Of a stretch of 64,000 bases of DNA, positions 1 to 44,029 are shown one piece after another. The position numbers were made by a program, and so were the translations under genes. The stretch is from Torpedo marmorata (lineage: Eukaryota), in contig OZ360242.1 in the NCBI GenBank assembly GCA_977017645.1, positions 18,166,001 through 18,230,000 of the forward strand, read 5' to 3'. The notes under the pieces are model-generated. The model saw nothing but the letters and a program-made list of their open reading frames with translations. It did no database searches and was not told the DNA's origin. Position 1 is the stretch's first letter. Each line of letters opens with the position of its first letter.

Positions 1-60
1 CGCAGGACATGCCCATACTACACCCTAGCACACAATATACCTAAACAGTGGTTTACCACA
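1..60 (-). mobile_element. Start (5' terminus) of a further Gypsy LTR, nested in the end of element 1's 3' LTR; continues beyond the left edge of the window
   Basis: Reverse complement begins TGTGGTAAACCACT, the same 14 nt that start the LTRs at 12008 and 16361. It replaces the terminal TGTAGC of element 1's LTR. Confidence 0.7.
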
Positions 61-349
61 GTGATCAATGACCACTCACAGACACAAAGAAAGTGATCAA
101 AGGCTTTATTAATCTGAAAGTCCAAGCATGCCTCTACATGCTGCTGGCTCACGTCCAAGGCAGGTATAAGGGGAGGAGACTAGGGCTCTCAGCCTTTACT
201 AGGGGATGTAATGGGGAGGGGCTACAGGTTAGCCCAGTGAGCCAGTGAGGACATGCCCGGACATGCCCGCAGTACCGCGTTCCACCACATTCACCCCTCC
301 TTTTTTTAATGAAGTCCGGCGGGGTGAAGTGGGGCAATGTCCATACATT

Positions 350-1445
350 TCATAGGTTCAGCCACTCCGGCAGTTTTATTTGGTGCTGAGATCTCCGAAG
401 TACTACTGGCTGTATCTTTGGATCTAGCTGAGCGGTGTCGTGTTCGACCTGCTGGCTGTTGGAGGGCTGAACTGTTTCAGTGTGTGCCGGGTCCGTAGGG
501 GGTTGGTGAATTTGTTTGTAAGAGTGGGGGGAACACACAAGTAGGGGGGGGGACACTCGGGGGGCCGTCTTGGGGTTGGGATCCCTACTTCATTTGTCAG
601 GGTGATCACTGGGGCCGACTGGTCACCTCCTGTGCCGGGTCCCCTGCTCACACCCGGTCCCGAATGGACACTGTATCGTCCCGTCCGTCCGGGTACCTTA
701 CCAGCGCATACTGGGGCTTCGCATGCAAGAGATGCACTTCCTCAACCAGTGGGTCCGCCTTATGTGCCATAACGTACTTCCGGAGAAACACCGGCCCTGG
801 GGTCGTCAGCCAGACCGGCAGCGTGGTTCCTGACGCCGACCTCCTAGGGAAGGATAACAATTTTTCATGGGGTGTAGCATTCGTGGCCGTGCAGAGTAGG
901 GACCTGGTGGCATGCAGCGCTTCTGGGAGGACCTCTTGCCACTGGGATACGGGCATCCCTTTCGACTTGAGGGCCAAAAGGACTGCCCTCCAGATTGTAC
1001 CATTCTCCCTTTCCACCTGCCCGTTCCCGCGGGGGTTGTAGCTGGTGGTTCTGTACGTAGCTATGCCCCTTGAAAGGAAGTATTGCCGCAACTCCTCACT
1101 CATGAAGGCAGATCCCCGGTCACTATGAACGTAACTGGGGTATCCGAACAGAGTGAATACTGTGCGGAGTGCTTTAATGACCGTGGATGTGGTCATATCC
1201 GGGCAGGTGATGGCGAATGGGAAACGTGAGTACTCATCCACGATGTTCAGGAAGTAGGAGTTCCGATTCGTGGACGGGAGGTGCCTCTTGAAGTCCATGC
1301 TGAGACGTTCGAAGGGGCGAGTGGCTTTGATTAGTTGGGCTCTCTTCGGTCTGTAAAATTGAGGCTTGCATTCTGCACAGACCAGGCAATTGCGAGTCAG
1401 CTCCCTTACTTCCTCCACTGAGTAGGGGAGGTTACGGGCCCTCAC
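350..1445 (-). pseudogene. Integrase of element 1 (DDE core, interrupted C-terminus)
   Basis: CLVC zinc half-site, SDRGSAF, YNPRGNGQVER, and an LRRS..LNL terminus like that of element 2. Confidence 0.9.
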
Positions 1446-1502
1446 AAAATGGTAGAGCCTAGTGACCCCGGGATGGCAGAGGCTATCGTGGAGGGCCTGG
1501 AG

Positions 1503-3281
1503 TCAATCAACTTGCACCCTGGAGCAGGTTCCGCTGGACAGGGCATCGGGTGGCTCATTGAGCTTACCCGGCCGGTACCATATTTCATAATTGTAGGTGG
1601 ACAGCTCAATTCTCCACCTCATGATTTTGTCATTTTTGATTTTACCCCACTGTTTATTGTTAAACATAAAAGCGACGGCTCTCTGGTCCGTCAGCAGGGT
1701 GAATGGTCTGCCGGCCAAGTAGTGCCTCCAGTGACGCACTGCCTCCACGATAGCTTGTGCTTCCTTTTCGATGGCGGAGTGCCTGCATTCGGGGCCTTGG
1801 GGAGGGCGGGAAAAAAATGCCACTGGCCTGCCTGCTTGGTTCATTGTGGCGGCCAGTGTGAAATCGGAGGCAGCACTTTCCACTTGGAAGGAGACGGATT
1901 CATCAATGGCATGCATTTCCGCCTTGGCAATCTCGCCTCTGATGCCCTCGAAGGCCTTACGGGCCTCCGCCGACGGGGGAAAAGTAGTGGTTTTCACTAG
2001 AGGTTGGGCCTTGTCTGCATAGTTAGGGATCCACTGGGCATAATAGGAGAAGAGCCCCAGGCACCTTTTTAAAGCCTTGGGGTTGTGTGGCTGAGGTAAT
2101 TCCAGTAGGGGGTGCATACGCTCTGGGTCGGGGGCGATAGCCCAATGCTTCATCACGTACCCCAGGATTGCCAGCCTCTTGGTACTAAAGACACACTTTT
2201 TCTCATTGTATATGAGATTGAGTGCCTTTGCGGTGGCCAGGAACCTCTGCAGGTTCTCGTCATGTTCCTTCTGGTCATGGCCGCAGATGGTGACATTGTC
2301 CAGGTATGGATACGTCGCCTTCAGCTTATTGTCATCCACCATGCGGTCCATTTCCCTTTGGAACACTGACACCCCATTCGTGAGGCTGAATGGGACCCGC
2401 AGGAAATGGTAGAGTCGGCCGTTGGCCTCAAATGCCGTGTACAGCCGGTCTTTTAGGCGAATTGGGATTTGGTGGTACGCCGCTTTTAGGTCCATGGTAG
2501 AGAAGACCCTATACTTGGCGATCTCATTCACCATATCCGATATGCAGGGCAAAGGGTAGGCGTCCAGTAAGGTGAACCGGTTGATGGTCTGACTGTAATC
2601 AATGACCATCCGATGTTTCTCCCCACTCTTCACCACCACTACTTGCGCCCTCCAGGGACTATTACTTGGTTCTATAATGCCCTCCTCCCGCAGCCGCTCC
2701 ACCTCCGTTTTAATGAATTTTCTATCCCCGGGGTTGTATCGCCTGTTCTTAGTGGCAATCAGTTCACAGTCTGGGGTGAGGTTTTGGAACAGCGGAGGCA
2801 GAGGGACCCGAAGGGTGATTAGTCCGCAGGTCGGGTGCCCGGCCCGGCTTTCAATCGTGTGATTGGGCCTCCTCTGGGGAATGGGCGGGGCCTCCCGGTA
2901 CTGGTTATTACTGACGGTGAGTGGGGGGTGGGGCCTGTCAAAATGCATCAGCACCCTTTTAAACTGGCACTGGAAATCTAGCTCCAATATGACGGGTGCG
3001 CAGATGTGGGGCATTACCAGCAGTTTAAAGTTCTTATACTTCGTGCCCCCCACGGTTAGGGTCACGGTGCAGCTTCCGCGGATTTCCGCAGAGAGGGATT
3101 TGGAGGCTAGTGCTACCTTTCCTTTGGCTGGGGACACAGTCAGGGAATAGCGCTCGGCCGTGCCCAGGTGTATGAAGCTCTCAGTGCTTCCCGTGTCGAT
3201 CAGGCAGCCAGTGGAGTGACCGTTTACCTCAACGTCCATCATCGACCGCCCCAGCTGGTGTGGTCTACCTTGGTCCAGCAC
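1503..3281 (-). pseudogene. Protease-RT-RNase H of element 1 (catalytic YLDD mutated to YLDN; premature stop before the integrase)
   Basis: LIDTGS protease motif, SPWRAQVVVV, DLKAAYHQI, YLDN, EKEAQAIV, LLTDQR. Confidence 0.92.
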
Positions 3282-3326
3282 GATGGACGCCAGCGTCAGC
3301 TCACTGTCCGAGTCGCTGTTGCTATG

Positions 3327-4289
3327 TCAGAATGACTGCCGCCAAGATGGCCACCCGGGAGATCGTGAAGATGGCCGCCCCCATGGATCGCATGCGGTCG
3401 AGTCCGGAGAAGAAGCAGGAAGTGACGTCAGTCCTTTTTGCTGCGCCCCTGGTCCGGAAGTTCGGTTCTCGGCACCCGGAAATGACGGCAGAAGTGGGTG
3501 GGCCCAAGATGGCGACGCAGGTCGTGGTCCGCACGCGGCACTGCTGGAGTGGGGCTTGGAGCGACATCCCCTGGCATAGTGTCCTTTCCTCTGGCAGTTT
3601 GAGCAGGTCGCGATACAGGCCGGACAGTACTTCCGCAGGTGCTTACTTTGGCCGCAGTAGTTGCACCTCGCGTGGTCGGCGGTGGCAGCTGCAGTCAGGG
3701 GCCCCGAATCCCAAGATAGCATCGCCCATTCTCCCCACCTGGTGGCCGCGTGGCCCGCTGAGTAGACCTCCGCATTCTTTTGGGCCGTCTCCATCGCTCA
3801 GGCCATTTGAACCACTTCCTGTAGGGACCGATCTCCTTTCTCTAGGAGTCGTTCCCTTATGTGCTGGGAGCGGAAGCCCATGACTAGCCCGTCATGGATG
3901 AGCTCCTCCTGGTAGAGCGCCGCATTCACGTCCCGGCACCCGCAGGCAAGTCCCAGCTCCCGCATGGCCCTCACGAAGTTGTCGACTGACTCACTGGGGC
4001 CCTGGCGTCGGGAGCCCAGCTGGAAGCGCGCGTACATGGCGTTGGTCGGGGCTCCACATTGCTGTCGGAGTAGGGCCATTGCCCCTTCATATTCAGTACA
4101 GTCTCGAATTATTTGGTACGCTCGGTGGCCCACCGCTGCGAAGAGCAGATCGTACTTATCAGGATCGGTTGTGATGTTGTGGCGTCTCAGGTAGGCCTTC
4201 AAGCAGTGAAGCCACATATCGAACTTTACGGAGGCCTCTGGTTCCTTCGGATCGATCTCCAGCTTCTCCAGTCTGATTGCCTTCTCCAT
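3327..4289 (-). pseudogene. Gag of element 1 with two zinc knuckles; in-frame stop at 3798-3800 plus a frameshift
   Basis: ORFs 3798-4289 and 3327-3794. CNYCGQSKHLRKYCPA..CSNCQRKGHYARGC motif. Aligns with the gag of element 2. Confidence 0.9.
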
Positions 4290-5964
4290 GGCACTTTAAA
4301 ATTCAGGTTAATAAATTGTAGCGCGATCAATGACCACTCACAGACACGAAGAAAGTGATCAAAGGCTTTATTAATCTGAAAGTCCAAGCAAGCCTCAACA
4401 TGCTGCTGGCTCACATCCAAAGCAGGTATAAGGGGAGGAGACTACGGCTCTCAGCCTTTATTAGGGGATGTAATGGGGAGGGGCTACAGGTTAGCCCAGT
4501 GAGGACATGCCCGCAGTACCGCGTTCCACCACACACCCAAAACCAGAAAGTGACTTTATAAGCAAATCTTTGGAAGTTAATCAATCCCAAATACCTTTGC
4601 AACTGCTTTGGATATCTATTTGCCAATGAGTCAGAAGAAACTGAAAAATTCAAGAATTTTGAGCAAACAAAGAGAAGTGAAAGGGACTCAATGTGTCAGG
4701 TAGCATCCAGAGGTCGAGATGGACAGTCAACATATTTGTCAATACTAGATCAGCAGTTCAAACCATGGGCATGAACAGCAATTTAAAGGGGTGGTCAGCA
4801 TAGCCAGGTTCACTTGCATGTTTAAGTTGCTGATTTGGCAGGATTTAGGTGCCAGAACAAACAGCAATAATTTGTGAAGCTGATTTGATGGCAGGAAAAT
4901 GGTTTTATCCAGTGGCTCCCAGCAAACTTCTGCTAGATTGCAGTTGGGTTTGGTGCTCACACAGTCTCTGCGGCTTTCAGCAGAGGACGGAGGGGATCCA
5001 AGAAGTTGCACAGGGAAGGCAATTCACAGCAAGACTTACCGCTGACTAGTGAACAGACCACCTGCTCTTGCCAATAATTTACTGACAAACAGTGTGTAAG
5101 GAGGCTGTTCTTGGCCATAAGAGAGCAATATCTCCTGCAGCAGGAATAACCACAAGGCCAGATATATGTTTAACAATGGCTCTCAAAGGTACTGTGATGT
5201 TGAACATTTGTGTTGCACGCTCATTCTACACAATGGCAGGCTCTGTCTCCACAGTCAGCCTAGGATTAGTTACCAGAGCCTGCTCCACTCTTAAAATATT
5301 ACAGCAATCTCTACAATACAGAAAGTATTTTACAGACTGTAAAGCACTTTCGAACAAACTGAGGCTTTAAAAAGATGCAATGTAAATACAACTCTTTCTT
5401 CTCCATCCCACAAACTCTGTAAAGCAGCAAGTCAGGCCCTGGGCTTTTATTGGATTGCAGGTTTCCCTTAAGTGCAGGACACAATTGAATTTGTTGGTGG
5501 TCTATTGCAAGAGCCTGGCAGGTATCTAATGAGGGAGTTTACTCACTGGAGTAAACTTCCTTTTTATGTGATAGTTGTAAGACACTCAAAAAAGTACAAC
5601 AATTTGCTTGTGGATCAGTGCCCGCTGATGGCCAAGGAATAACTGCATGGAACACAGGAGTCATGTTCACAAAGGTAGACAGTCATATGAAAGATACTGA
5701 AGGAGGATGGCGATAGATAAAGTAACAGACACAAATTATGTTTTCTGTAACTTCAGGTTAAGACTGGAAAGTCTTAAACAAGGAGATGTAGAGAAGTAAA
5801 AGCATAGATTTAAAAAATGAGGAGGGTGATCATGGGTGGTTGGAAAAGAGTGCAAGCAGTGGACAGTAGCAACCTAATGATTTTAATATAAAATGAGCAG
5901 ACCTGGAGAAACATAAATTTGTTTTACTTCCACTCCGCTTCAAGTTTTACATTTAATTTTTTTT

Positions 5965-12002: not shown

Positions 12003-12292
12003 CAAATTGTGGTAAACCACTATAGTATGTATATGTGTATTGTGGGCTGGGGCAAGTCTGATCATGACCTGTCTGTCTGTCCCGGTGACTCCTCCCCCTT
12101 TCCCCTGGAATAAAGGCCTTGAGCCATTGACTCCACCCACAGTTCCGGGACAGTCCAGCAGGGATCACCAGGTCAAAGTGTAGCTTAGCCCTGGCCTGAT
12201 TTCTGGTAATAAAAGCCTATTGATTCCCTGCACTTCCTGACTCGCGTTAGTCATTGATAGGTACATCAATTTTATTACCAGTTCTAAATCTG

Positions 12293-13753
12293 ATGGAGAA
12301 TTTTCTGAGGCCGGACAAGCTGGACATCGACCCCCTGGCCCAAGACGCCGCAAGTGACTTTGAACTCTGGCTACGCTGCTTCGTAGCCTTCCTGAGGTCG
12401 ACCAGAGCGGCTACCAACGAGGATAAACTCGACATCCTCATGTCTAGGGTAAGCAAACGGGTGTATAACACCGTCAGAGACTGTGAAACCTATGAGGATG
12501 CCTTGGGAGCCCTCCGAAGACTGTACCTGACGCCAGTGAACGAGGTTTACGCGAGGCACAGGTTATCACAACGGCGCCAGCGACCCGGAGAGTCGATCTC
12601 CGAGTATATCCAGGACGTGCAGCTCCTGGTGCGGGCGTGCGATTGCCGAGCCCTGACGGCCGAGCAACACGCTGAAATATTGGCAAGGGACACTATCATT
12701 ATGGGGCTCAGGTCGGTTTACATTCGCCAGCGATTGCTGGAACACGCCGACCTGACCCTGAAATCTACCGTCCGCACGGCCCTCACGCTGGAGTCGGCGC
12801 TCAGGAACGCTGACGCTATGCAGGCGCAGCCTGCCTCGTGGATCGCCCCAACCGCCAGCCCTGCAAGCGACGTGACTGCCGCTGCCGTCTACCGGGACCC
12901 GATCGCCGCCGCCGACGCTATCCGTGAGTTGGCCGCTGCCGCCGCTACCCGGGAGCCCGCCGCCATCCGTGAGTTAACCGCTGCCGCTGTTACCCGGGAG
13001 CCCGAGAAGTGTTACTTCTGCGGGCTCGACAAACACCCACGTAAGCGCTGCCCGGCCCAAGACGCGACTTGTTCTAGCTGCGGCAAGAAAGGCCACTACG
13101 CTAAGGCCTGCCGCTCCAATTCGCGTACGGGTCCGAGCAGCGCCGCGTGCGAAGTAAGGGAGCGGCCATCTTACCTGTCGTCACTTCCGGCGGTGACCTC
13201 GTGCGAGGAATGGAGGCGGCCATCTTGGCCTTCGGCATTTCCGGTATCGACACTTCCGGCACGGCCATTTTATAGCCTCGCCGCGGCACTTCCAGCACTT
13301 CCGGCGCCGCCATCTTGTAGCGACACGTGCGACCTACGGGAGCTGCCGTCAGCGTCGGATCAAGACGGCTCGTCGGATCAAGACTTCGTCCCGACCCTGG
13401 CATCCGTGACACTGGATCAGAGCGCGCCCCATCAGCTGTCCAGATCGATGATGGACATATTAGTTGAGGGGCATAAGACTACCTGCCTGTTCGACACAGG
13501 CAGCACTGAAAGTTTTGTTCATCCAGACACCGTCCAGCGCTGTGGCCTCACAATTGTACCGGTAAGCCAGAGGGTGGCCATGGCGTCTGGAACGCACACA
13601 ACAGACATCCGGGGGGGGTTGTGTGGCGAATATAGTGGTACAGGGCACGGAATATCGCGGGTTTTCATTGTTGGTCATGCCCCGTTTGTGTGCTCCTGTA
13701 TTGCTGGGACTGGACTTCCAAAGCCACCTGTGAAGCGTCACCATGCACTATGA
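12293..13753 (+). CDS. gag: Gag-protease of element 2 (goes out of frame at the G8 run 13611-13618)
   Basis: The first ATG downstream of the LTR is at 12293. Two zinc knuckles CYFCGLDKHPRKRC / CSSCGKKGHYAKAC. LFDTGS protease motif. Confidence 0.9.
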   Translation: MENFLRPDKLDIDPLAQDAASDFELWLRCFVAFLRSTRAATNEDKLDILMSRVSKRVYNTVRDCETYEDALGALRRLYLTPVNEVYARHRLSQRRQRPGESISEYIQDVQLLVRACDCRALTAEQHAEILARDTIIMGLRSVYIRQRLLEHADLTLKSTVRTALTLESALRNADAMQAQPASWIAPTASPASDVTAAAVYRDPIAAADAIRELAAAAATREPAAIRELTAAAVTREPEKCYFCGLDKHPRKRCPAQDATCSSCGKKGHYAKACRSNSRTGPSSAACEVRERPSYLSSLPAVTSCEEWRRPSWPSAFPVSTLPARPFYSLAAALPALPAPPSCSDTCDLRELPSASDQDGSSDQDFVPTLASVTLDQSAPHQLSRSMMDILVEGHKTTCLFDTGSTESFVHPDTVQRCGLTIVPVSQRVAMASGTHTTDIRGGLCGEYSGTGHGISRVFIVGHAPFVCSCIAGTGLPKPPVKRHHAL

Positions 13754-16241
13754 TGGGCCCCACCCTCCGATCGTAGTGACCAACCCCCAGTACTTGAATA
13801 ATACGCCCCAGACTACCTGTGATCTCTCCACGCTGAAGACCCAACCCCCGTCACTTTTCGCCAACCTGACCCCTGACTGTAAGCCTGTAGCAACTAAAAG
13901 TAGGCGATACAGTGCAGGGGACAGGGCATTCATTAAGGCGGAGGTGCATCGTCTACTGGGGGAAGGGATCATCGCACCAAGTAACAGCCCCTGGAGAGCA
14001 CAGGTAGTCGTAGTGAAGAACGGGGCTAAGAGCCGGATGGTGGTGGACTATAGCCAGACCATTAACCGGTTCACGCAACTGGATGCCTATCCGCTGCCAA
14101 GAATCGCGGATATGGTCAACCAGATTGCGCAGTACAAAATATTTTCCACCATCGATCTAAAGTCGGCTTACCACCAGCTTCCGATTCGCCGGGAAGACCG
14201 AGCATACACCGCTTTCGAGGCGGACGGCAGATTATTCCATTTTCTGCGCGTCCCCTTCGGGGTAACAAACGGGGTATCTGTGTTTCAACGGGAGATGGAC
14301 AGGATCATTGACCAGTTCAAACTCACTGCCACCTTCCCGTACCTGGACGACATCACCATTTGTGGTCATGATCGCCAGGATCACGATAGGAACCTTCGGA
14401 AGTTCCTACAGGCGGCCAAGACGCTGAACCTCACTTATAACAAGGAGAAATGCGTGTTCGGGACTACCCGACTCGCTATCCTGGGGTGCGTCGTGGAGAA
14501 CGGGGTGATTGGACCCGACCCCGACCGCATGCGCCCCCTGTTGGAACTTCCGATTCCCCACACCCCCAAAGCCCTTAAACGATGCCTCGGGTTCTTCTCG
14601 TATTATGCGCAGTGGGTCCCAAACTACGCGGACAAAGCCCGACCCCTCGTCAAATCCACCAAGTTTCCCCTGGCAGCGGAGGCACGTGAGGCCTTCGACC
14701 CCATAAAAGGGGACATCGCCCGAGCAGCGATGCACGCGGTGGACGAGTCGGTACCTTTTCAGGTGGAGAGTGACGCATCGGACTTCGCACTGGCTGCTAC
14801 CCTCAACCAGGCGGGAAGACCGGTAGCGTTTTTCTCCCGCACCCTTCAAGGCCCCGAAATTCGGCACTCCGCGGTAGAGAAAGAGGCCCAGGCCATAGTT
14901 GAAGCTATTCGGCACTGGAGGCATTATCTCGCCGGAAAACATTTTACCCTGCTGACGGACCAGCGCTCCGTCGCATTCATGTTTAACAACCAGCAGCGGG
15001 GTAAAATCAAGAATGATAAAATCATGAGGTGGAGAATAGAACTCTCCACCTACAATTACGACATCCTTTACCGGCCCGGGAAGCTCAACGAGCCCTCCGA
15101 CGCTCTATCCCGGGGATCGTGCGCCAGCGCGCAGATCGACCGAGTATACTCCCTACACAACGACCTCTGCCACCCAGGAGTCACCAGGCTGTTCCACTTC
15201 ATCAAAGCACGGAACCTGCCTTACTCCCTGGAAGAGGTCAGAACCATGACCAGCAGCTGCCGAGTCTGTGCGGAGTGCAAGCCGCAGTTCTACCGCCCCG
15301 ACAGAGCACAGCTGGTCAAGGCCACCCGCCCGTTCGAACGTCTCAGTATAGACTTCAAGGGCCCCCTTCCCTCCACGAACCGCAACGTGTACTTCCTTAA
15401 TATCATCGATGAGTACTCGCGGTTCCCCTTTGCCATCCCCTGCCCCGATACCTCGGCGGCTTCGGCTATCAAAGCCCTCCGCCAGGTATTCACCTTGTTC
15501 GGGTTCCCCAGCTATGTCCATAGCGATCGGGGATCCGCGTTCATGAGCGAGGAGCTGCGGCAGTACCTGCAGACCCGAGGCATCGCCACCAGTAGGACCA
15601 CGGGGTACAACCCGCGGGGGAACGGACAGGTGGAGAGGGAGAACGCCACTGTATGGACAGCTACACTACTGGCCCTGAAATCAAAAGGGTGGCCAGTGGC
15701 CCGCTGGCAGGAGGTTCTCCCGGACGCCCTCCACTCTATACGATCCCTGTTATGTACCGCCACTAACGCTACCCCTCACGAACGTCTTTTTTCCTTCCCT
15801 AGAAAATCGACCACCGGAACTACCCTCCCTGCCTGGCTGATGTCCCCGGGACCGGTGCTACTCCACAAACATCTTCGGAGTAGCAAGTACGAGCCCTTGG
15901 TCGAGAGGGTGCAGCTGACCCACGCGAACCCGCAGTACGCATTCGTTGTTTTCCCCGACGGCCGGGAAGACACGGTGTCAATACGGGACCTGGCGCCTGC
16001 AGGAGCGTCAGAAGAGGTCCCCGACAGCGGAGAAGCCGGGTCACAGCTGCCCCCTCCGCCTCATCCGCCCCCCAGCACGGCGGGTACAACGCCCCAGCCG
16101 GAGCTGGATGAGCCACAAGCCAGGCAGGAGGCAACCCAGACCCAGACCCACCCTACCCTCGTTCCACAGCCACAACCATCACCGCAGGTATTACGCAGGT
16201 CACAGCGGCGAGCCCGACCGCCGGATAGACTCAATCTGTAG
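13743..16241 (+). CDS. pol: RT-RNase H-integrase of element 2 (intact reading frame, no chromodomain)
   Basis: YLDD, ESDASD, EKEAQAIV, H..LCHPG...CRVC, SDRGSAF, GNGQVER. Confidence 0.95.
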   Translation: MHYDGPHPPIVVTNPQYLNNTPQTTCDLSTLKTQPPSLFANLTPDCKPVATKSRRYSAGDRAFIKAEVHRLLGEGIIAPSNSPWRAQVVVVKNGAKSRMVVDYSQTINRFTQLDAYPLPRIADMVNQIAQYKIFSTIDLKSAYHQLPIRREDRAYTAFEADGRLFHFLRVPFGVTNGVSVFQREMDRIIDQFKLTATFPYLDDITICGHDRQDHDRNLRKFLQAAKTLNLTYNKEKCVFGTTRLAILGCVVENGVIGPDPDRMRPLLELPIPHTPKALKRCLGFFSYYAQWVPNYADKARPLVKSTKFPLAAEAREAFDPIKGDIARAAMHAVDESVPFQVESDASDFALAATLNQAGRPVAFFSRTLQGPEIRHSAVEKEAQAIVEAIRHWRHYLAGKHFTLLTDQRSVAFMFNNQQRGKIKNDKIMRWRIELSTYNYDILYRPGKLNEPSDALSRGSCASAQIDRVYSLHNDLCHPGVTRLFHFIKARNLPYSLEEVRTMTSSCRVCAECKPQFYRPDRAQLVKATRPFERLSIDFKGPLPSTNRNVYFLNIIDEYSRFPFAIPCPDTSAASAIKALRQVFTLFGFPSYVHSDRGSAFMSEELRQYLQTRGIATSRTTGYNPRGNGQVERENATVWTATLLALKSKGWPVARWQEVLPDALHSIRSLLCTATNATPHERLFSFPRKSTTGTTLPAWLMSPGPVLLHKHLRSSKYEPLVERVQLTHANPQYAFVVFPDGREDTVSIRDLAPAGASEEVPDSGEAGSQLPPPPHPPPSTAGTTPQPELDEPQARQEATQTQTHPTLVPQPQPSPQVLRRSQRRARPPDRLNL

Positions 16242-16626
16242 ATGTGATGGTGACTATGTAAATAATTTGTGTATATTTGTGTGATTTGTGTATCTTTAAT
16301 TACGGTAACCACTTCACCCCCCCCCCCCCCCGTCGGACTTGTTCTAAAAGAAGGGGTGAATGTGGTAAACCACTATAGTATGTATATGTGTATTGTGGGC
16401 TGGGGCAAGTCTGATCATGACCTGTCTGTCTGTCCCGGTGACTCCTCCCCCTTTCCCCTGGAATAAAGGCCTTGAGCCATTGACTCCACCCACAGTTCCG
16501 GGACAGTCCAGCAGGGATCACCAGGTCAAAGTGTAGCTTAGCCCTGGCCTGATTTCTGGTAATAAAAGCCTATTGATTCCCTGCACTTCCTGACTCGCGT
16601 TAGTCATTGATAGGTACATCACAAAT

Positions 16627-20488: not shown

Positions 20489-23400
20489 TGGCAATTAAAG
20501 AAAGAACAAACTTCTAGAACTATAACGGCTATAAAAAGGAATTCTAAGAAAATAACTTATAAACCGCGAGAAATAAATGATTCTTTCAAGGATTTTTATT
20601 TAAATTTATATAAATCTCAAACTGATAAAGATGATTCTAAAATTAATGAATTTTTATCCAAAATTAAGATGCCGAGGTTAAATATTCATAGTAAAGAATT
20701 TTTAGATTCACCATTTACGATGAGAGAAGTTAATGAGGTTCTTAGTTCTTTAACTAGTGGAAAATCACCAGGGGAGGATGGTTTCCCATCAGAATTTTTA
20801 TAAGGAATTTAAGGATTTATTGATACGTCCTTATATGGAGGTGTTAAAACAAATAACGGAAACTCATTCTCTACTGGAAACTTTTTCAAATGCAATAATA
20901 ACAGTTATACCTAAAAAAGATAGAGATTTGTTGAAAACAGAATCATATAGACCAATTTTGTTGCTAAATGTGGACTATAAGATAATTGCGAAAATTTTAG
21001 CAAATAGAGTGGCTAAATATTTACCAGATTTAATTCATGTAGATCAAGCAGGTTTTATTAAGAACAGATATTCAAAAGATAATATAGCTAGATTAATTAG
21101 TTTAACAAATGTGGCACAAAAGAGAGAGGAATTAGTGTTAGTATTAACATTACATGCCGAAAAGGCTTTTGATAGATTAGAGTGGAATTATTTATTTAAG
21201 GTACTGGAAAAATTTGGTTTTGGAACTACATTTATTAATTGGATTAAAACTATATATAAAGAACCATCTGCTAGAGTGGTCACAAATGGACAAATTTCTT
21301 CAAAATTTTCTTTGACTAGGTCAACCAGACAAGGTTGTCCTTTGTCGCCAGCATTGTTTATTTTAGCAATAGAACCTTTAGCAGAATTAATTAGACAGGA
21401 TATTAAGATTGCAGGTATTAAAGTTGGTAATGAAGAGCATAAAATTAGTTTATTTGCAGATGACATATTGATTTATATGACAAAACCTATTACTTCTTTA
21501 ATGCAATTGACTGTTTTATTGAGAGAATATGGAGAAATATCTGGTTATAATATTAATTCTGATAAAAGTGAAATTATGGCATTAACACAAGGGGATTATA
21601 GTAAATGTAAAGAAATTACACAATTTAAGTGGTCAAAGGAAGGAATTAAATATTTGGGAATAAAGATTGATACAAAATTAACTAATCTATATAAATTAAA
21701 TTATCTACCATTATTTATGAATATTAAAAAGGATTTAGAAAGTTGGAAGGATTTACCTATAACTTTAATGGGAAGGGTAAATTGTATTAAAATGAATGTT
21801 TTTCCGAGAATTCAATATCTTTTTCAATCAATTCCTTATGAAATCCCTCAAAAATTCTTTAAAGATTTAAATTTAATTATTAGGAAATTCTTGTGGAAAG
21901 GAAAGTTGGCTAGGGTAGGTATGGAGAAATTAACTTGGAATTATGAAATAGGTGGTTTACAACTTCCTAATTTTCAATATTATTATAAAGCAGCCCAATT
22001 AAAATTTATTAATGAAATGTTTGATTTAGGAAAATCTTCTGCTTGGATTAGAATAGAATTAAATAATATAGGAGAAGATTTGAAAGAAGGAGTTATTTAT
22101 AAATGGAATTCTAAATTATTATTAACAAGAGGGAAAAATTCTCCTATTTTTAGACATTTGTTAGAAATATGGAATGTACAGATATATTTTCACTTGTTCT
22201 TTTCCCTTCTCTTTTCTTTTTTTAGTTCTAGTATGGGGAGGGGATAAGGGATGGGAAGGGTGGAGGGTGGGTTGTTTTAGCGAGGGTGGACTTAGATGGG
22301 GTTAGATTCATGGTAATACGAAATTCCTATGTATCGTACTTAACTAATGTTTACTGTGTATTTTACATTATTTTGTATTATTGTGAAAAATTTGAAAATC
22401 TTAAAATAAAATATTTTAAAAAATAAAAAAAAAGAAATATGGAATCGAGTGGATAGAGAGATAGGAGCGAAAGGGTCAATTTCTCGAAAAATGCATCTGT
22501 ATCAAAATAAACTTATTCCATTTACTGTTGATAATCAATTATTTAAAATTTGGTTCCAAAAGGGAATTAAGAAAATAAATGATTGTTTTGAAGCTAGTAA
22601 ATTTATTACTTTTCAAAGAATGAAAGATAAGTTTAATGTATCAAATAATACACTTTTTGCTTATTATCAAATTAGAGGATTTTTAGTTGAAAGGTTGGGC
22701 TATAGTTTGATTTTATCAAGACAGAGTGAATTGGAATTATTAGTTACTAATGGAGTTGTAAATACATTTATTTCTCAAATGTATAGATTGTTACAGAGGA
22801 AAATACCTAAAGCAGGAATTCATAAATCAAGATTAAATTGGGAATCAGATTTGAATGTAACAATAGATGAAGAACATTGGAAAGAATTATGTAAACAAAG
22901 TATGACGAAGATTATTAATGTTAGATATAGATTAGTGCAATATAATTTTTTTCATCAATTATATTTAACACCTAAAAAATTAAAGAAATGTAATCTGACA
23001 TTATCCGGTTTATGTTTTAGATGTAATAGAGAGGAAGGTTCTTTTGTACATTCTACATGGTTTTGTCCAAAAGTATATGATTTTTGGTTGAAAGTTAAAA
23101 AGTTTTTAGATAAAGCATTAAGAATTACACTCCCAATGAATCCAATGATATTTTTGTTTGGAGATATTAAAAGAATTAGTGTTAAGATTAAATTAAATAT
23201 GTATCAAATAGAATTTTTACGTATTGCTTTAGTTGTTTCTAAGAAATGCATTGCTATTACATGGAAATCTGATGTAGATTTAGGGTTAGAAAGATGGCAT
23301 GCAGAACTTCGTTCATGTATACCACTTGAAAAAATTACTTATAATTTACGTAATAAATATCATTTCTATTTGAAAATATGGAGCCCATATATAAAAACTG

Positions 23401-23670
23401 TTGGTTTAAGGATTTGAAGATCTCCGGATATTGGATTGGACTGGCGAACCTGTGTTCCACAATAAAATTAGTTTATAGTTGTTCTTTTTAGATTGACATT
23501 CTCCTTACTTTATCTTTTTCTTCTTTCTTTCTTTCTTTTCGGGAGGGTTAGGGAGGGGAGGGAGGGAGGGAGGGAGGGGGGGTGAAAATGTATCACATGT
23601 AATTTGATAATTTTACATTTTAAACTATGTACTGTGTGATTTAAAAATTTTAAATAAAATATTTTAAAAA
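20489..23670 (+). mobile_element. L1-clade LINE, 5'-truncated, AT-rich ORF2 (RT and C-terminal Cys motif), with a nested insertion
   Basis: AEKAFD, RQGCPLSP, LFADD, IKYLGI, CFRC..HSTWFC. G-rich 3'UTR tract at 23541-23582, AATAAA and A tail. TSD AA(A/C)GTTTTGAGTC at 20476-20488 and 23671-23683. Confidence 0.93.
22176..22432 (+). mobile_element. 3'UTR-only fragment of a different L1-type element, inserted into the L1 ORF2
   Basis: 13-bp TSD AGAAATATGGAAT (22163-22175, 22433-22445). T-rich then G-rich tract, AATAAA, poly(A). Absent from the sister copy near 40550. Confidence 0.85.
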
Positions 23671-23785
23671 AACGTTTTGAGTCGAGACCCTGCATCAAAG
23701 GCAGTTTATCCTTCACTATATCTAATTACAAAAGATTCAGCAATGACTTTTGGAGGATGCACATGATGGCCTGTACATCTTGGCC

Positions 23786-29759: not shown

Positions 29760-30485
29760 TACTGTACACCCTCACGTGGTACATGTAATGTGCACAATTT
29801 CATACACACTGTGCATACTTGTTATGATACAATTCCATATATCATACTCACTGTGTATATTCACCATTGCATAGTCCCACACGAGGCATTCATGTACACA
29901 ATTCTGTTGTGATTCAGCACCTTAGAGTACATTCAGTGTGTGATCACTGTGGTATTTACTGGGCACACTCACTGTCAGACACAATGTGCACTCCCTCTTG
30001 TTGTGACAGTCCCATAGACCACAATCACTGTGCTTAATCTCACTGACATGCAATGGTATACTCACTGTTCATATTCTTGTTCAGGCACAATCTTATACTC
30101 TTTCTTCACTTGGTACACTCACTCTCACACGAGTCCACAGTGAATGTTCACCATGCATATTTTATTACCTTTCTGCAGGCACATTCACTGTCAAATGCCC
30201 CACAGTCACTATCACATAGAAGAACTCTGTATTTTCATGAAGTACACACATAGGGTAATATAGTCCCACACTGAATAATCCCAGTCATAAAATTCCACAA
30301 TGCACAGTTAGTACACACTCTCACATACTGTCACAAAGTCCAATATTTCACATTCACCCTGCACACCTGATGTTAATCCAGTTACCAGGAGAACTATATA
30401 CACAGTGTTACACAAAGCGCCACTTCACAAGCATTGTGAACACTTACTGTAACATAGTCCCATGCAGGACATTCACTGTGCATAC
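29760..30485. repeat. Degenerate CA-rich low-complexity tract (continues at 36627-37371 and 43428-43705)
   Basis: Recurrent CACTGT/CACAC/TCACACT words and G depletion on the + strand. Confidence 0.65.
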
Positions 30486-33400
30486 TGTTACAAACTCAAA
30501 CCAGCAACAACAGAAGATGCAAAATACAGTCCCAAAAGTACAGTCCACAAAAGTCACTCTCTATGTCCAGGGTCCAAATTCAGCTCTGTGTGCTGGCATG
30601 AAGGACTTCTTAATGAGGGTTGCTGTTCAAATCAGTGTTCCACTGACGAAGGCGTGTACGTGGATCTCACAGCTCGTCTAGCTGATCTCACGCCTGTTAT
30701 CCACGAAAGTTGCTTTAAATCAGTATTTTGCTGATAAAGGAGGCCATGTGCTCTTCTCCATAGCCTTTCTAGCTGGAATGCACAGGCCTCTGTTTTTGCT
30801 GTTCTATCTCCAGCCTTTGCAACTCCACTGACTGCTTTTGCAGAGTTTTGCACCTGCTTTTGCAAAAGTGCAACAAAGAATATTTTTTTTACAGCCTGTC
30901 TCTCTCTCTATGTGTGTCTCTCTCTGAGCACAGCCAGCCCTGGGCAAGTTAACTCTTTCAGTACCTGGTCCCAGTGTGTACTCAAAAGACTTCATCCTTC
31001 CTGCTGACCATCCACAGTCCAAATAGTCAGATATGGTCCACAACACCTCCCACATAAAAAGAAAATTTTGGTGAGCAAGAACAAAATTTTGGAAATTAAT
31101 TGAGGTTTCACAATATAAACAAAACCCACAATGTTCATCCACAAACAAAAAAAATGAACTATTTTCATTTATAAAGTTTAGTATCTAGAAAGACAATCAG
31201 CGATTACATTATCCTTCCCTTTTATATGTGTTATCATTAAATAATATTCTTGCAAAATTAGAATCCAATTTAACAACCGTCGATTCTTATTTTTCATTTT
31301 ACAAAAAAAAACCAATGGATTATGGTCAGTATACACTATGAGTGGTTTTGAGCTGTACAGATATACACATCAAAGTGTTGTAGAGCCAACACAAGAGCTA
31401 ACAATTCTTTTTCTATGGTTGAATAATTCTTTTGATGATCATTGAACTTCTTCGGTCAATGTCCTCTGCGTTCTTCCTCTGTAACAGCACAGCACCCACA
31501 GCTTCATCGCTGGCATCCACGGCTAAAGAAAATGGCTTTTCTAAATCAGGTGACTTAAGCACAGGTTAGTGGCATAAAATGGTTTTCAATTTGACAAATG
31601 CTTTCTGACAACCTGTCGACCATACAAATTTTTCTCCCTTTCGAAGTTTTTACAGAACTTGCGATAGTAGCCAATCATTCCCAGGAACCTCCTCAGAGTT
31701 TTCTTACCAGTTGGAACAGGGAACTCGGAAATAGTCACAACCTTTGCCTCTACTGGCGCCAACTGCCCCTGTCCTACAACATAACCCAGATAAATAACAG
31801 TCGCATGTCCAAACTCACTTTTACTTAAATTAACTGTGAGATTTGCTTTTGACAGTCGTTTGAACAATTGGTTTAACTCAAAGACATGCTCTTCCCAAGT
31901 GTCACTACTTACAATTAAATCAATGTAAGCACCTGTGTTCTTCAACCCTTGAATTACTGATCATTCTCTGAAATGTTCCTGGAGCATTCTTCATCCCAAA
32001 AGGCATAACATTATACTCATACAGCCAAAAAGGTGTTACAAATGCAGAAATCTCCCTACCCCTTTTTGTCAAAGGAACACACCAGTACCCTTTCAATAAG
32101 TCAATTTTAGTAAGAAATTTGGCCTTCCCCACCTTGTCTATACAATCGTCTATTCTAGGAATAGGATAAGCATCTGCCTTTGTCACAGCATTTACTTTCC
32201 TATAATCAGTGCAAAACCTAACCGTTCCATCAGGCTTAGGCACTAAAACACAAGGTGAACTCCAATTGGAAGTAGACTTTCGAATGATACTGTTCTTTAA
32301 CATGTAGTCAATTTCCTGATCTACCAGTTTGCACTTATCTGCATTGATTCGATATGGATGCTGTTCTATAGGTCTTGCATTTTCTACATCCACATCATGA
32401 TAAGCTATGGAAATTTTCTGAGGCACAGCGGGAAATTAATTTATAAATTAAAAAAAATAACTGACTCATCTCTTCCTTTTCGGAAGTTTTGAGATGAGCC
32501 AACTTTGTCTCCAGATTGTGCAAAATCATGGAATTTTCTAACCTCAGGCTTATCAATTTCTGTGTCCCATGACCCTCTCTGAAACTGGTTTTATCTGTCT
32601 CCTCCTTACCCTGGTCGATAATCAGCACCTCTGGTAAATGTTCAGTCTCTTTGTGCGGCACCTGTTTAAAATATGGCTTAATCATATTCACATGACAGAC
32701 TTGTGTGTCTCGTCTGCGATTAGGTGTTTCTATGACATAGGTGACCTCATTAATTTTTGACAACTCTATAGGGTCCTGAAAATCTAGCCCTAAGGGGATT
32801 TGAATGTGTGGGAAACAGAACTAATTCGTTCTCACCAGGTTTAAAAGTTCTCATCATGGCCTTTCGATCATACCAAACCTTCATTCTCTGTTGAGTGGCC
32901 TTTAAAGTCTCCTTTACCATCTCACAAGCTTTATGCAACCGATCCTTAAATTTGGATCCATAATCCAACACATTTAAATGCACATCACTATTAATCCATT
33001 AATCTTTTAATAACCTTAAAGGACCTCTCACCTCATGTCTGAAAACTAACTCGAATGGACTATAACCAAGTGATTCTTGGACAGACTCCCTCGCTGCAAA
33101 TAACAACAAATGAACCCCCTCATCCCAATCCTTTTCATTCTCACAACAAGAAGTTCTAATCATGTTTTTTAAAGTCGAATGGAACATCTCTAAGGCCCCT
33201 TGACTTTCTGGATGGTACGCAGTGGATACAATCTGTTTAACTCCCAGTCTATCAACCACTTGTTGAAATACGCCTGACATGAAATTACTACCCTGATCTG
33301 ATTGAATTTCCCTCGGCAAACCTACCAAGGTGAAAAACTTTACCATAGCCTTTACAATTGCCTTTGCTTTAATGTTTCTCAGAGGCCTCCGGAAATCTGG

Positions 33401-35898
33401 TGGCTGCACACATAATTGTTAACAAATACTCTTTCCCTGCTTTGGTTTTGGGCAATGGGCCAACACTGTCCACAATCACTCTCGAGAAAGGTGACCACCT
33501 AAGGGTGTGCTATGAGCCAAAGTTATTATTTCATCCTTATATACTTTAGGGATCACAACCTGCTGCACTACTGCCCATTCATCACTGGCAGGAACATCAC
33601 ATGGTCTCCACTTTCTCATCAACACCCCATCTTTTTCATAATAACCCATTGGCACCTTCTTAATCTCCTCTTCAGAGAGAACCTTATCCCTCACCTCAGC
33701 AAGATCAGGATCCTCCTTTTGCCTTGCTATTAGCTCCTAACGGGATAGTGACAAATCTGTGCCTTTAGGTGTCTTATCAGTGTATGGGTATAACACAGGA
33801 GATTTATCAACCTTTTCCAGGTGTTTTTGATTATCACCGACTTTTTCTTTCACCAATTCATTTTCCACTGCCTTCTCTAGTGACATTTTTCTTAGACATG
33901 GCCCTGGTTATGGCACATGCTGGATAAATATCAGAGTCCTTCTCTGACTTATCAATGACTGGCATAGTGGTCATTTGCACTTCAGGAACTACTTTACGCT
34001 CAGCCAAGTCATTGCCTAGCAACAGTGAGACTCCTTCTACTGGTAACTCTGATCTCACCCCTATTATTACAGCTCCTTCCACCAAGGCTGAGTTCAACAC
34101 TATTTTGTGCAAAGGAATGCACTCAACATCACCCCCAATTCCTTTAATTAAATTCATTTCACCGGTGTCAGTGGCTTCACAAAATTCCAAGACACTATCT
34201 TACACAAGTGACTGAGCAGCTCCAGTATCTCGCAAGATTTTCACTGGAACTTGCTTTGAATCTGCCTTAACTGAAACAGAACCATCAGTAAATTTATCTC
34301 CTTCCTGGGTGTTATGTCTCTTCTCACTCTGAATACAAGCATTAGGTGTTGCATCCTTTTCTCTCTTCTTTTTCAACACAGGACAGCTTGCTAGCATATG
34401 ACCAGCCTTCCTACAGTCGTGGCAAATGGGACCCGAAGGGTTTTCCTTTTTCCTCTCCCCTTCATCTCTTCCCTTAACACCACTTCCAAATTTACTTTCC
34501 ACTTGATTGGGATTATCCACAGTGCCCTTTTGGAATATTCTGCCTGACATCTACTTAGGCTTGTGGGTTAAAGCATATTCATCTGCTAACTTAGCTGAAT
34601 CTTGCCAAGTTTTCACCTCCTTTTCATCTAAGTATGCCTTAATATTCTCAGGAACACATCTTTTTATCTCCTCAATTAGTATCAATTCTCTCAATTGATT
34701 GTAATCATTGTTTACCGCCTTAGATGTGCACCACCGGTCAAAACACACAACCTTTTCACAGGCAAACTCTGTATAAGATTGGGTTGCTGATCTTTTTAAA
34801 TTTCTAAACTTCTGTCTATAAGCCTCTGGAACTAACTCATAAGCCTGGAGTATAGCCTTTTCCACCGTTTCATAATCAGCAGCTTGCTCCGTGGTAAGAG
34901 CAGAATAAGCTTGCTGAGCTTTCCCTTTAATTACACTTTGTAACGTAAGAGACCATTGGTCTTGCGGCCATTTTAATTTCACAGCCACCTTTTCAAAATG
35001 CTGGAAGTATTTATCTATTTCTGCCTCCTCAAATGGAGGAACCAACCTAACTTCTCTACTGGCCAAAAACCTCTCAACAGGATCATGAATTTGATCTTGG
35101 GGTTCTTCTTGTCTCCTCTCATTTTCCAATTTAATCTTTTCCAGCTGATGTTGCCTAATTTTCTCCTCATTCTCTAAGTCTCATCTCTTTTGTTCTCTGG
35201 CTGCCTCCAAGTCTAATCTCTTTTATTACAATTCCAATTTCTTCAATTCCAACTGTGTGTTCTCAGAAGGTTTACCCTTGATAAACTGCTCTAACATGCT
35301 CTCCTCAAACTTTTTTCCTTTTATATAGTATTTGGCAATTTTTCTCCCAATCTCCGCCTTTTTCATTGTTGGTTTTACAGAAGCAATGCTCAACACTGTT
35401 GCTATAGCCACTAACTGTTCCTTTTTAGCCTTTTTCAAGGCATCAGGTTTGGGTGATTCCAAAAAAATGTCTACATCCATTGTTGCTGGTTTATGTTACA
35501 CACACACTACCTTTTAATTAGATTTACAAAAGGAATGACTTAAACCAGACTGGAATTCCTTCAATTACCAAGCTGGAGCTTCACTCAAACTAAGCCAATT
35601 GATCTCCAATCAATCAACCTCTAAGCTCCCAAATTTGTTTTGATCCCAAATTTGTTTGGATCCCGGACGATTTATCACCAATCAATCAACCCCTAAGTTC
35701 CTAAATTTGTTGCGATCTTGGACGAGCCCCCAATTTGTTACAAACTCAAACCAGCAACAACAGAAGACGCAATGCAAAGGGGTTAAAATTTAAATTTATA
35801 TTTATTAAAGACAATTCAATATATAACTTCTTAATGATTAACCCCACTATAAATGTCTATAACAACTATTCAGTTATCAAATACTTATCTAAAGTGTA

Positions 35899-35935
<37 letters not shown>

Positions 35936-36626
35936 GCCCAGACCATTACAGTCTGTGCCCAACCCTCATGTAAAATGGAAAACCTTCCCCAAAACCCCAG
36001 GTCAGTCATAAAAATAAGTCAGTCCTAAAAATACAGTCCACAAAAGTCACTCTCTATGTCCAGGGTCCAAATTCAGCTCTGTGTGCTGGCATGAAGGACT
36101 TCTTAATGAAGGTTGGAGAGAGAGACACTGACTGTTTTAAGCTTATGAATACTTGGTCTGCTATATCCTTCCGATGACTTTCCTTTTGTAGGTCCACGAG
36201 GGTTGCTGTTCAAATCAGTGTTCCACTGATGAAGGCGTGTACTTGGAACTCACAGCCAGTCTAGCTGATCTCACGCCTGTTATCCACGAAAGTTGCTTTA
36301 AATCAGTATTTTACTGATAAAGGAGGCCATGTGCTCTTCTCCACAGCCTTTCTAGCTGGAATGCACAAGCCTCTGTTTTTGCTGTTCTCTCTCTAGCCTT
36401 TGCAACTCCACTGACTGCTTTTGCAGAGTTTTGCACCTGCTTTTCCAAAAGTGCAACAAAGTATATTTTTCACAGCCTATCTCTCTCTCTTTGTGTGTCT
36501 CTCTCTGAGCACAGCCAGCCCTGGGCAAGTTAACTCTTTCAGTATCTGGTCCCAGTGTGTACTCAAAAGACGTCATCCTTCCTGCTGACCGTCCGCAGTC
36601 CAAATGGTCAGTCATGGTCCATAACA
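30486..36626 (-). mobile_element. Gmr1-like Ty3/Gypsy LTR retrotransposon 'element 3' (PR-IN-RT-RH order), degraded
   Basis: LTRs at 35736-36626 (5') and 30486-31045 (3', internally deleted). 4-bp TSD ATAC (30482-30485, 36627-36630). Gag 35480-34551, ILRDTGA protease near 34230, integrase 33700-32750 (SDQGSNF, GPY) lying upstream of RT 32426-31600. Confidence 0.93.
35715..35732 (-). promoter_or_regulatory. tRNA-Pro primer-binding site of element 3
   Basis: TGGGGGCTCGTCCAAGAT, 3 nt from the LTR. 16/18 match to the canonical Pro PBS TGGGGGCTCGTCCGGGAT. Confidence 0.85.
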
Positions 36627-38141
36627 ATACCCAAATGGTACACTATCCAACACTGTACATTATATATTCTGTAAACTCAATGGGCACAATCTCACTGTCA
36701 GACAACTCCACTAGCCACACTATTTGTTCATCCTTTCACAATCACATTCCTTATTCTTTGTGCACACTGATAAGGCCAGGCAATCCCACTCTGCATGATC
36801 ACTGTGCACACATTCCCACACTGAGCGAACATTCATTACCCTTACTCTGCATTTAATATGTTCACTGTATATGTGATATGTGATCTCATTATGATACAAT
36901 TCCACACCATACACACTGTGTATACTTTGTCACACTCTTATTCTCACATTCCCACAATTTACACTGATTCCCAAACAACCCAACTCTCTACACTCATAGG
37001 GATGAGAATGTCACACTGTACACTACACTATCACACAATTTCTGTCTGTCCATACAATGAGGGGCACACTTACAATGCATTCAACGCATCTCAAACTGTA
37101 CACAATCTATCCTACGATCCCAAACTGTACAAACATCATGCACACTTACTGATACATGAATTCACACATTAAACTCACAGCCACAATCTGTCACATAATC
37201 CCATATTGTGCACCCATCCTGGGCGTTCTTTCTCACTCCTCTACAGAGAAGTCTCCGTGTACATTTACGTTGCAAACTTCATTCCACTCATCTACAGTTT
37301 ACTCACTGTCACACAATTCCACTCACTACAGACACTCTCCACCACTGCAGACAATCACCACCACTGCACACTGTTATGCACCATGAATGACCATTTCGAC
37401 TGCGGACGGTCAGCAGGAAGGATGAAGTCTTTTTGAATACACACTGGGACCAGGTACTGAAACAGTTAACTTGTCCAGGACTGGCTGTGCTCAGAGAGAG
37501 AGACACACATAGAGAGAAAGAGAGACAGGCTGTGGAAAGATACTTTGTTGCACTTTTGCAAAAGCAGGTGCAAACCTCTGCAAAAAGCATTCAGTTTGGA
37601 GTTGCAAAAGGCTGGAGAGAACAGCAAACACAGAGGCTTGTGCATTCCAGCTGGAAAGGCTGGAAGAATAGCACATGGCCTCCTGTATCAGCAAAATCCT
37701 GAGATAAAGCAACTTTCGTGGAGAACAGGCGTGAGATCAGCGAGACAGGCTGTGAGATCCAAGTATGTGCCTAAATCAGTGGTATACTGATTTGGAATTG
37801 CAATCCTCGTGCATGTACCAAAAGGGAAAGTCATCAGGGAAGAAAAGCAGGCCAAGCATTCGTAAGCTTAAACAGTCATTGTCTCTCTCTCCAACGTTCA
37901 TTAAGAAGTCCTTCGTGCCAACGCACAGAGCTGAATTTGGACCCTGAATATAGAGAGTGATTTTTGTGGACTGTATTTTTGGGACTGACTTATTTTTATG
38001 ACTGACCTGGGGGTTTTGGGGTATGTTTTCCATTTTTACATGAGGGTTGGGCACAGACTGTTATGGTCTGGGCTTTACACACACACACACACTCTTTAGA
38101 TAAGAATAGTGTTTATAGACGTTTATAGTGGGGTTAATTGT

Positions 38142-41700: not shown

Positions 41701-41787
41701 ACATGTATTTTGATAATTTTGCATTTTATACTATGTATTCTGTGATTTTAAAATTTTAAATAAAATATTTAAATTAAAAAAAAAACA
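38723..41787 (+). mobile_element. L1-clade LINE, 5'-truncated, same family as 20489-23670, disrupted (LFAYD, frameshifts)
   Basis: ORFs 39085-40167, 40173-40844, 40887-41264 and 41295-41516. Poly(A) tail. 14-bp TSD AAATTATATGTTTA (38709-38722, 41788-41801). Confidence 0.93.
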
Positions 41788-43243: not shown

Positions 43244-43282
<39 letters not shown>

Positions 43283-44029
43283 CTTAGATAAGAATAGTGT
43301 TTATAGACGTTTATAATGGGGTTAATTGTTAAGAAATTATATGTTTAATTGTCTTTAATAAATATAAATTTCAATTTTACCCCTTTTGCATTGCGTCTTC
43401 TGTCGTTGCTGGTTTGAGTTTGTAACAATAGACTCACCACCACTGTACACACTCACCACCACTGCATACACTCACAACCACTCTCTTCACTCACTAACAC
43501 TGTATACACATCATCACTGCTTACACTCATGACCACTGCATACACTCACCCTCACTGCATACATATACCACCACTGCATACTTTCAACATCAAAGTTTAC
43601 ACTCACTGCCACTGAATACACTCCAAGACACCTTCCACCACACAATACTCTCAGTGCACTCACCACACCATCTCACTACCACAGTACAGCTGTCACCTCA
43701 CATTACAATAGTAAAAACATAGAAGTGCTGGAGGAACCAGGCAGTATCACAGCATCCATAGGAGGTAAATATATATTACCAACGTTTCAGGACTGCGCCC
43801 TTCCTCAAGGCATGAGCACAAAAAGACAGGTGTCTGTGTCAAAAAGCTGGGGAAAAGGGAAGAATGGGAGGGGGAGGAGTACAGACCAACAGACAAAAGG
43901 TGTTAATTGGACATGATAAGAGGACAGGAGAGAGGAAATGTAAGAATTGATGGGGGGGGGTTGCTTCTGGCTCTGTAAAAGGAGACACAAGGAAAGATTA
44001 GGGGGGGTCTAACGAAGTGCATTAAACTG

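Follow-up and report, generated by a model that had tools for sequence, protein, structure and literature searches.

Why should the leader of a retrotransposon, at the very position of its primer-binding site, be complementary to the element's own long terminal repeat (LTR)? The question is raised by element 1, which lies on the minus strand near the start of the window (the whole stretch of DNA analysed, 64,000 nucleotides). The initial annotation had attributed this complementarity to a functional RNA helix and not to chance pairing of AT-rich DNA. The pairing of sister copies, and its extension beyond the polyadenylation core, support that attribution as far as sequence comparison goes. The clade to which element 1 belongs likely primes itself as Tf1 does, with a cut piece of its own RNA, a reading to which we give a probability of roughly 80%.

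Element 1 and its neighbours in the window

A Ty3/Gypsy LTR retrotransposon without env, element 1 spans 4.5 kb (window 61-4533, minus strand). Its 5' LTR (4317..4533, minus strand) is 217 nt long and of the TG...CA type, with an end set by family copies and by the target duplication GGGTG. The gag-pol region (648..4289, minus strand; gag ATG at 4289) encodes a CCHC motif, protease, reverse transcriptase (RT), RNase H and integrase. It is split by stops into four stop-to-stop frames, and no match to an env or a chromodomain was found in it. A polypurine tract (294..307, minus strand) precedes the 3' LTR (61..289, minus strand), into which, near the end, another member of the clade has inserted. 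Of this nested relative the window holds the start of the 5' LTR (1..60, minus strand), the remainder lying beyond, and it has its own 13-bp arm-leader helix. The nested insertion at window position 60 is flanked by a 5-bp duplication, read in the adjacent DNA (locus L306, G000:C56, directly upstream), and the last 6 nt of the element 1 3' LTR were recovered in the neighbouring DNA beyond the insertion. As these 6 nt are seen there and GGGTG is present on either side of element 1, the end of its LTR is fixed.

Element 2, of the same clade, is found at 12008-16621 on the plus strand (LTRs 12008-12268 and 16361-16621, target duplication CAAAT). It shares 75.5% identity with element 1 across the RT-RNase H protein, and at least 40 places in the genome are 100% identical to the 221-nt query for this element. 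The Ty3/Gypsy features found are the TG...CA LTRs, the target duplication, the polypurine tract, and the pol order protease-RT-RNase H-integrase with an RT of Gypsy type; the best relative with a solved structure is the Ty3 RT 4OL8 (E 3e-54).

The window carries several other features. At about 30200-36626 (minus strand) there is a Gmr1-like Gypsy element with a SCAN domain, an LTR roughly 900 nt long and, at 35732, a primer site of the tRNA type that starts with TGG; this label, and Mag/SURL-like used below, are ones that we take to apply on domain order and RT motifs. LTRs related to those of the Gmr1-like element are located at about 37400-38050 and 42600-43430 (plus strand), and two arrays of a 19-nt minisatellite (37305-37391 and 43409-43638) adjoin the LTR pair at 37500/42700. 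Two non-LTR-type RT copies (20489-23672 and 38865-41778) are about 93% alike, with a GC content of 24-33% and strong G skew. A frame at 44612-45433 with a short Fringe-like Pfam match is probably an exon of a host glycosyltransferase gene.

The LTR arm of element 1, the candidate self-primer, is located at 4367..4380 (minus strand); it ends in AATAAA (4372-4367) and is followed by GCC. The leader arm (4302..4315, minus strand) occupies the position of the primer-binding site and does not start with TGG. Between the end of the LTR at 4317 and the leader (4315-4302) there is one spacer A (4316..4316, minus strand), in exact agreement with the start of the leader 1 nt after the LTR proposed initially. 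The spacer is an A in 81/81 elements anchored in the genome (below), where the 1-nt spacing belonged to the anchor and the letter did not. The loop between the arms, consisting of the end of R and of U5 (4317..4366, minus strand), starts with RCC and has predicted inner stems. The pairing, described as 13/14, was recovered as 4315-4302 x 4380-4367 with 13 Watson-Crick pairs and one A-C, and the AATAAA said to be about 50 nt from the LTR end forms the arm's 3' end and precedes the LTR end by 50 nt. When the complement of the leader was compared to 3000 dinucleotide shuffles of the element 1 LTR, the best match was at most 11/14 and 0/3000 reached 12. The folding energy of the whole region is unremarkable (z -1.45 to -1.63), so the evidence is in the covariation and not in the stability.

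The pairing had been described as kept in different letters between elements 1 and 2, and the helix of element 2 is indeed complete (12/12, 12203-12214 x 12270-12281). The A-C mismatch of element 1, for which a perfect pair in the family consensus had been proposed as a check, is a Watson-Crick pair in 27/30 best family copies, a set biased towards the variant of the window itself; 25/30 pair 14/14, and the mismatched base is common to element 1 and one other among these 30.

Covariation of arm and leader

A gag motif matched the 6.2-Gb genome 24,430 times, and its reversed control matched twice. From 100 listed gag-motif places, chosen without reference to the LTR, 96 distinct elements were obtained, and 81/96 could be anchored. 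The 15 dropped have mutated anchors, deletions or, once, an inversion, and in most of them the pairing is still visible by eye. Over helix positions 1-12 the 81 elements show 939 Watson-Crick, 4 G-U and 29 mismatched cells (positions 1-3 being partly fixed by the anchor), and 22 distinct perfect 12-mer versions of the helix are present. The helix is sharply bounded: run length peaks at 14 (39/81 elements), the outer edge is near 14, with position 14 paired in 62/81 and position 15 in 15/81, and the inner edge is fixed, two positions inside pairing in 0/81 (the G on the LTR side is set by the anchor). Complementarity extends beyond the AATAAA core, positions 7-13 being fully paired in 59/81 elements compared to 3.6% of crossed arm-leader pairs.

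In an alignment of 56 copies the arm-leader helix was the only one predicted by RNAalifold. Its covariation score of 0.607 was reached by 0/500 shuffles, a shuffle that ignores relatedness, and slid partners scored 0.113 at most. Since MAFFT misaligns parts of the arm between families, the per-position counts rest on the anchors. This local helix was predicted at a probability above 0.9 in 51/63 RNAs. On comparative grounds the arm-leader helix is a real and selected feature, and its formation in the RNA is predicted by the folding model.

Two controls come from the same genome. In Gmr1-like elements the leader starts with TGG after 2-3 nt, and the best LTR-leader helix is of 4-9 bp (12/14 loci with an LTR pair found, some of the ends being roughly placed). 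In a control stem internal to the LTR and starting at the end of the arm, G-U occurs in 25/75 and 24/75 at two pairs. For one dimorphic pair of the main helix, genome-wide searches returned 1792 U-A, 1563 C-G and 113 discordant matches, the two discordant-state searches giving the same set read on opposite strands. Among 100 listed discordant copies 53 are U-G and 47 are C-A in a count by eye. Forty discordant copies were fetched, 22 with both LTRs and 18 without a usable 3' LTR. An excess of lagging leaders was not found in the 22, which have 11 private changes in the 5' LTR and 11 on the leader side; nor was it found in a separate count (6 leader-side, 4 private 5' and 6 private 3'). With this 11:11 split the discordant copies have the look of post-insertion decay, and wobble versions are not multiplying. 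As the split matches plain decay, it does not separate the two explanations that fit the non-spreading wobble, namely that the primer is recopied into the leader and that selection is strict.

Some observations on individual families may be added. By eye, and uncounted, the U-A and C-G states are both seen on the same U5 haplotype between the arms, meaning that the pair switched more than once, or that U5 recombined with the arms staying matched. At L033:1302-1495 the LTR arm of one subfamily is joined to the leader and U5 of another, a possible recombinant. In a subset of the families (L047, L092, L164 and their relatives) a CTCCAT lying just upstream of the arm is able to pair with ATGGAG, where gag starts, which would carry the helix across the start codon.

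One metagenome scan gave 30 more distant loci with 32-51% gag identity and an RT, where present, mostly 59-64% identical. At least 12 pairs in the same geometry are found in 20/30, representing about 9-10 families and not independent cases. Anchor and enough upstream DNA were available for 21/30, of which 19 have at least 12/14 pairs; the twentieth locus, L216, has a 13-bp helix that the anchor missed. The arm was picked by maximising pairs, and in shuffled upstream DNA of these loci (30 shuffles per locus) perfect runs were of 6-12 at most. The other ten include one locus that is too short, one with 10 bp, one with a leader without a matching arm and seven without the anchor, in two of which 4 nt separate the end of the LTR from the gag match. 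All 19 anchored distant arms end in AAA, and 18 of them continue with R-C-C/T. Named RT relatives are from rays, corals, a nematode, a fluke, a sea slug, a spider, a copepod and lepidopterans, the best being those of rays (71-81% identity), which points to a cartilaginous fish as the likely host; scans of viral contigs found no relative. Three of the metagenome loci (L214, L223, L225) share a common gag, and in place of a 5' LTR and leader all three have the same unrelated DNA upstream.

These data bear on the simplest alternative, by which the complementarity would be a chance product of AT-rich DNA inherited from one ancestor. The weakness of the regional folding z-scores and the relatedness of the copies would agree with it, but not the 0/3000 shuffles, the repeated double changes, transversions included, the lack of a helix in the AT-rich Gmr1-like controls and its presence in distant relatives. 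The crossed-pair counts, the helices of the distant loci and the genome-wide counts of the dimorphic pair refute it, and we consider its probability negligible.

A candidate self-primer

What is seen at the site is its position, its complementarity to the LTR, covariation, sharp ends and the absence of a TGG start. The complementarity to the own LTR at the primer site is the Tf1-type criterion, and the non-tRNA type was judged by the absent TGG. Both polarity and position match those of a primer: paired with the arm's 3' end is the base 1 nt past the CA of the LTR. In the proposed mechanism the 14-nt leader would anneal to the LTR arm of its own RNA, and the RNase H of the element would cut between the last A of the arm and the RCC that comes next. 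Extension of the 3'-OH set free in this way, which is paired to the leader's first base, would proceed across the spacer A into U5, and minus-strand DNA synthesis would thereby start without a tRNA. Plus-strand synthesis may recopy the primer into the leader at each cycle, and the pairing would for this reason stay strictly Watson-Crick.

The precedent is Tf1 (also PMC4600332), in which the RNA's initial 11 bases are paired to the primer site and the RNase H cut follows base 11, according to the accessible text of PMC7175516. A copied primer site is present in about half of the Tf1 cDNAs (PMC11042837, in the part available). For Ty3, the portions of PMC5371799 consulted place the active sites of the RT about 13 bp apart, a distance close to the length of the arm-leader helix, and describe a primer site that is not recopied from the tRNA, which counts against recopying here.

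In L130/L201, an aberrant integrated copy with a 5-bp target duplication, the leader and 593 nt of gag are inverted between R and the arm-U5 portion (L201:476-1557, G000:C1 near 10898980-10900060; order U3-R, inverted leader-gag, arm-U5), and the break on the R side is at the outer edge of the helix. This structure is compatible with folding back at the arm-leader match in the course of DNA synthesis and does not indicate the identity of the primer. No further inverted copies of this kind were found among 40 scored candidates.

A primer of host origin would be an internal tRNA fragment or other small RNA bound by the leader, with the LTR match as a secondary feature. Half-tRNA priming is described for some Copia lineages in the accessible part of PMC6317226. 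However, a fixed host RNA cannot follow leaders of which 22 perfect 12-mer versions exist in one genome, each tracking its own LTR, and we regard this explanation as very improbable.

The relation of the helix to the polyadenylation signal differs between this genome and the distant loci. The arm ends in AATAAA (60) or ATTAAA (19) in 79/81 elements and the leader tracks the switch, so the covering of AATAAA described initially holds here; it does not hold at 10/19 distant loci (about 9-10 families, not 19 independent cases), where the arm has neither hexamer and where 7 of the 10 carry one in the loop, outside the helix. The helix could serve mainly to hide the poly(A) signal of the 5' LTR, leaving the 3' LTR free, while another RNA primes. 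This function would suit the hexamer counts of this genome, as well as the restriction of helix formation to the 5' end of the RNA. It is not the core function, given that the helix exists without either hexamer in those 10/19 loci. It also leaves unexplained why the leader keeps a fixed distance of 1 nt from the LTR, why TGG is missing and why G-U, which would mask the hexamer equally well, is avoided, and we consider it unlikely. An attempt to place the poly(A) site from retrocopies gave one locus genome-wide, by eye unrelated to the LTR. In the self-priming reading the arm of this host genome doubles as a poly(A) hexamer, whose concealment in the 5' LTR alone may be a by-product of the helix.

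The position of the arm relative to the start of the RNA is less simple. A TATA-like motif, AATAAAGG (4455..4462, minus strand), probably with a promoter role, is present in 77/81 elements across families. An initiator-like motif (4425..4431, minus strand) follows 33 nt after it and makes 4429 a candidate start of the RNA. A pyrimidine-A, mostly in CAGT, is found at offset 30-33 from the TATA-like motif in 76/77, the divergent element 1 family included, although a pyrimidine-A within a 6-nt window is not rare by itself. The distance from the TATA-like motif to the arm is variable (65-93 nt) and its spacing to the initiator-like motif is fixed, which suggests that the arm may lie inside the RNA and not at its 5' end, where Tf1 needs it. 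These motifs together predict a TATA-initiator promoter, with transcription starting 33-62 nt upstream of the arm. On the other side, a purine is present at arm position 10 in 80/81 elements, and AG(T/C) at arm positions 11-9 in 16/19 distant loci, beginning 11 nt before the end of the arm, which is the length of the Tf1 primer. Both are as expected for a Tf1-like start at the arm. Positions 12 and 13 also covary, and a start at position 11 leaves this unexplained. A conserved hairpin or fold upstream of the arm that could act as a copying stop was not found (mean z -0.13, n=63).

The pairing of positions 12-14, upstream of the start-like purine at position 10-11, would be explained by a partner in the 3' LTR. 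The arm is present at both ends of the RNA, and the arm of a second RNA, or that of the own 3' LTR, might anneal to the leader as primer, dimer link or means of cyclisation. The local helix predicted in most RNAs (51/63, as above) argues against such pairing, and the loop length, held at about 36-76 nt, and the RCC stem abutting the end of the arm point to a local fold; we judge an arrangement between molecules or between the ends of one RNA to be decidedly unlikely.

Self-priming could be extended to a joint proposal, which is tentative and which we hold to be rather doubtful as a whole. A widespread non-chromovirus lineage of animal Gypsy elements would cut its primer out of the RNA's interior, at 33-62 nt from the cap, unlike Tf1. 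The primer would in the present host be the poly(A) signal, one 14-bp helix would both block premature 3' end formation in the 5' LTR and prime, and recopying would couple the arms.

Comparison with known systems

The closest parallel is with the Tf1/sushi chromoviruses (Tf1/Tf2, Tj1, Tosmo1-3), which likewise have a primer site complementary to their own LTR and not to a tRNA. Extra stems beside the central duplex may be a further likeness: in Tf1 two further duplexes flank the central one (10.1101/2022.12.06.519325, in the part accessible). Here there are two conserved stems, RCC:GGY at the end of the arm and one of 7 bp across the LTR end, but they overlap and are mostly invariant. The differences are that the helix is of 12-16 bp as against 11, that the arm in this genome overlaps the poly(A) hexamer, and that the Tf1 primer is the first 11 nt of the RNA whereas the promoter predicted here is 33-62 nt upstream of the arm. 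The chromodomain that defines the Tf1/sushi chromovirus group is absent from what was searched: no match to Chromo or SH3_Tf2-1 was found, at E up to 0.1, in the integrase tail of element 2 and in five gag-containing relatives, 4/5 of which reach the integrase core. A genome search with SH3_Tf2-1 for a sushi-type control led, in the loci examined, to Gmr1-like elements.

Plant Tcn1 (Gypsy) and TAR (Copia) have the same diagnostic, at least 10 bp of LTR complementarity 0-5 nt after the LTR (PMC6317226, accessible part). They differ in lineage and host, Tcn1 being related to Tf1/sushi and TAR being a Copia element. Gmr1-like and Mag/SURL-like elements also have a Ty3/Gypsy RT, and the former are present in the same window and genome; both have 27-31% RT identity to element 2, and Gmr1-like elements, unlike this clade, have TGG-starting primer sites and no helix. 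The poly(A) hairpin of HIV-1, and the occlusion of the 5' LTR site in retroviruses, also involve a helix covering AAUAAA close to the RNA's 5' end. In the present clade the LTR does not contain the partner, which is located at the primer site, and about half of the distant loci lack the overlap. The gag motif of the CsRn1 clade is CHCC. Membership of element 1 in that clade was rejected on its CCHC-type gag knuckles, although its LTR start fits the TGTGGYG given for CsRn1 in the accessible text of PMC3601003. The supplements of PMC6238403 and PMC13524379 gave no match to three motifs each that would link the clade to MolGy1, MolGy2, Cigr-1 or another named animal clade.

In the parts of the literature consulted, self-priming is reported for Tf1/sushi, Tcn1 and TAR (PMC6317226, PMC4600332). 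It is experimentally shown in Tf1 and elsewhere predicted, mainly in chromoviruses and in one plant Copia lineage (PMC6317226, PMC7175516). No description of the helix of this clade was recognised in the open-access texts, as far as these were available, including PMC3601003, PMC6238403, PMC12471100 and PMC6934838. The genome studied here offers thousands of natural compensatory variants. Some Repbase entries reportedly mention self-priming palindromes in animal Gypsy elements. If the present reading is true, tRNA-free priming would be a common animal strategy outside the chromoviruses, and such elements would be without the tRNA-matched site that 3' tRNA fragments target, as the accessible literature describes it. 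The mechanism itself is known from Tf1, and what is seen here is likely a variant of it in a non-chromodomain clade of animal Gypsy elements.
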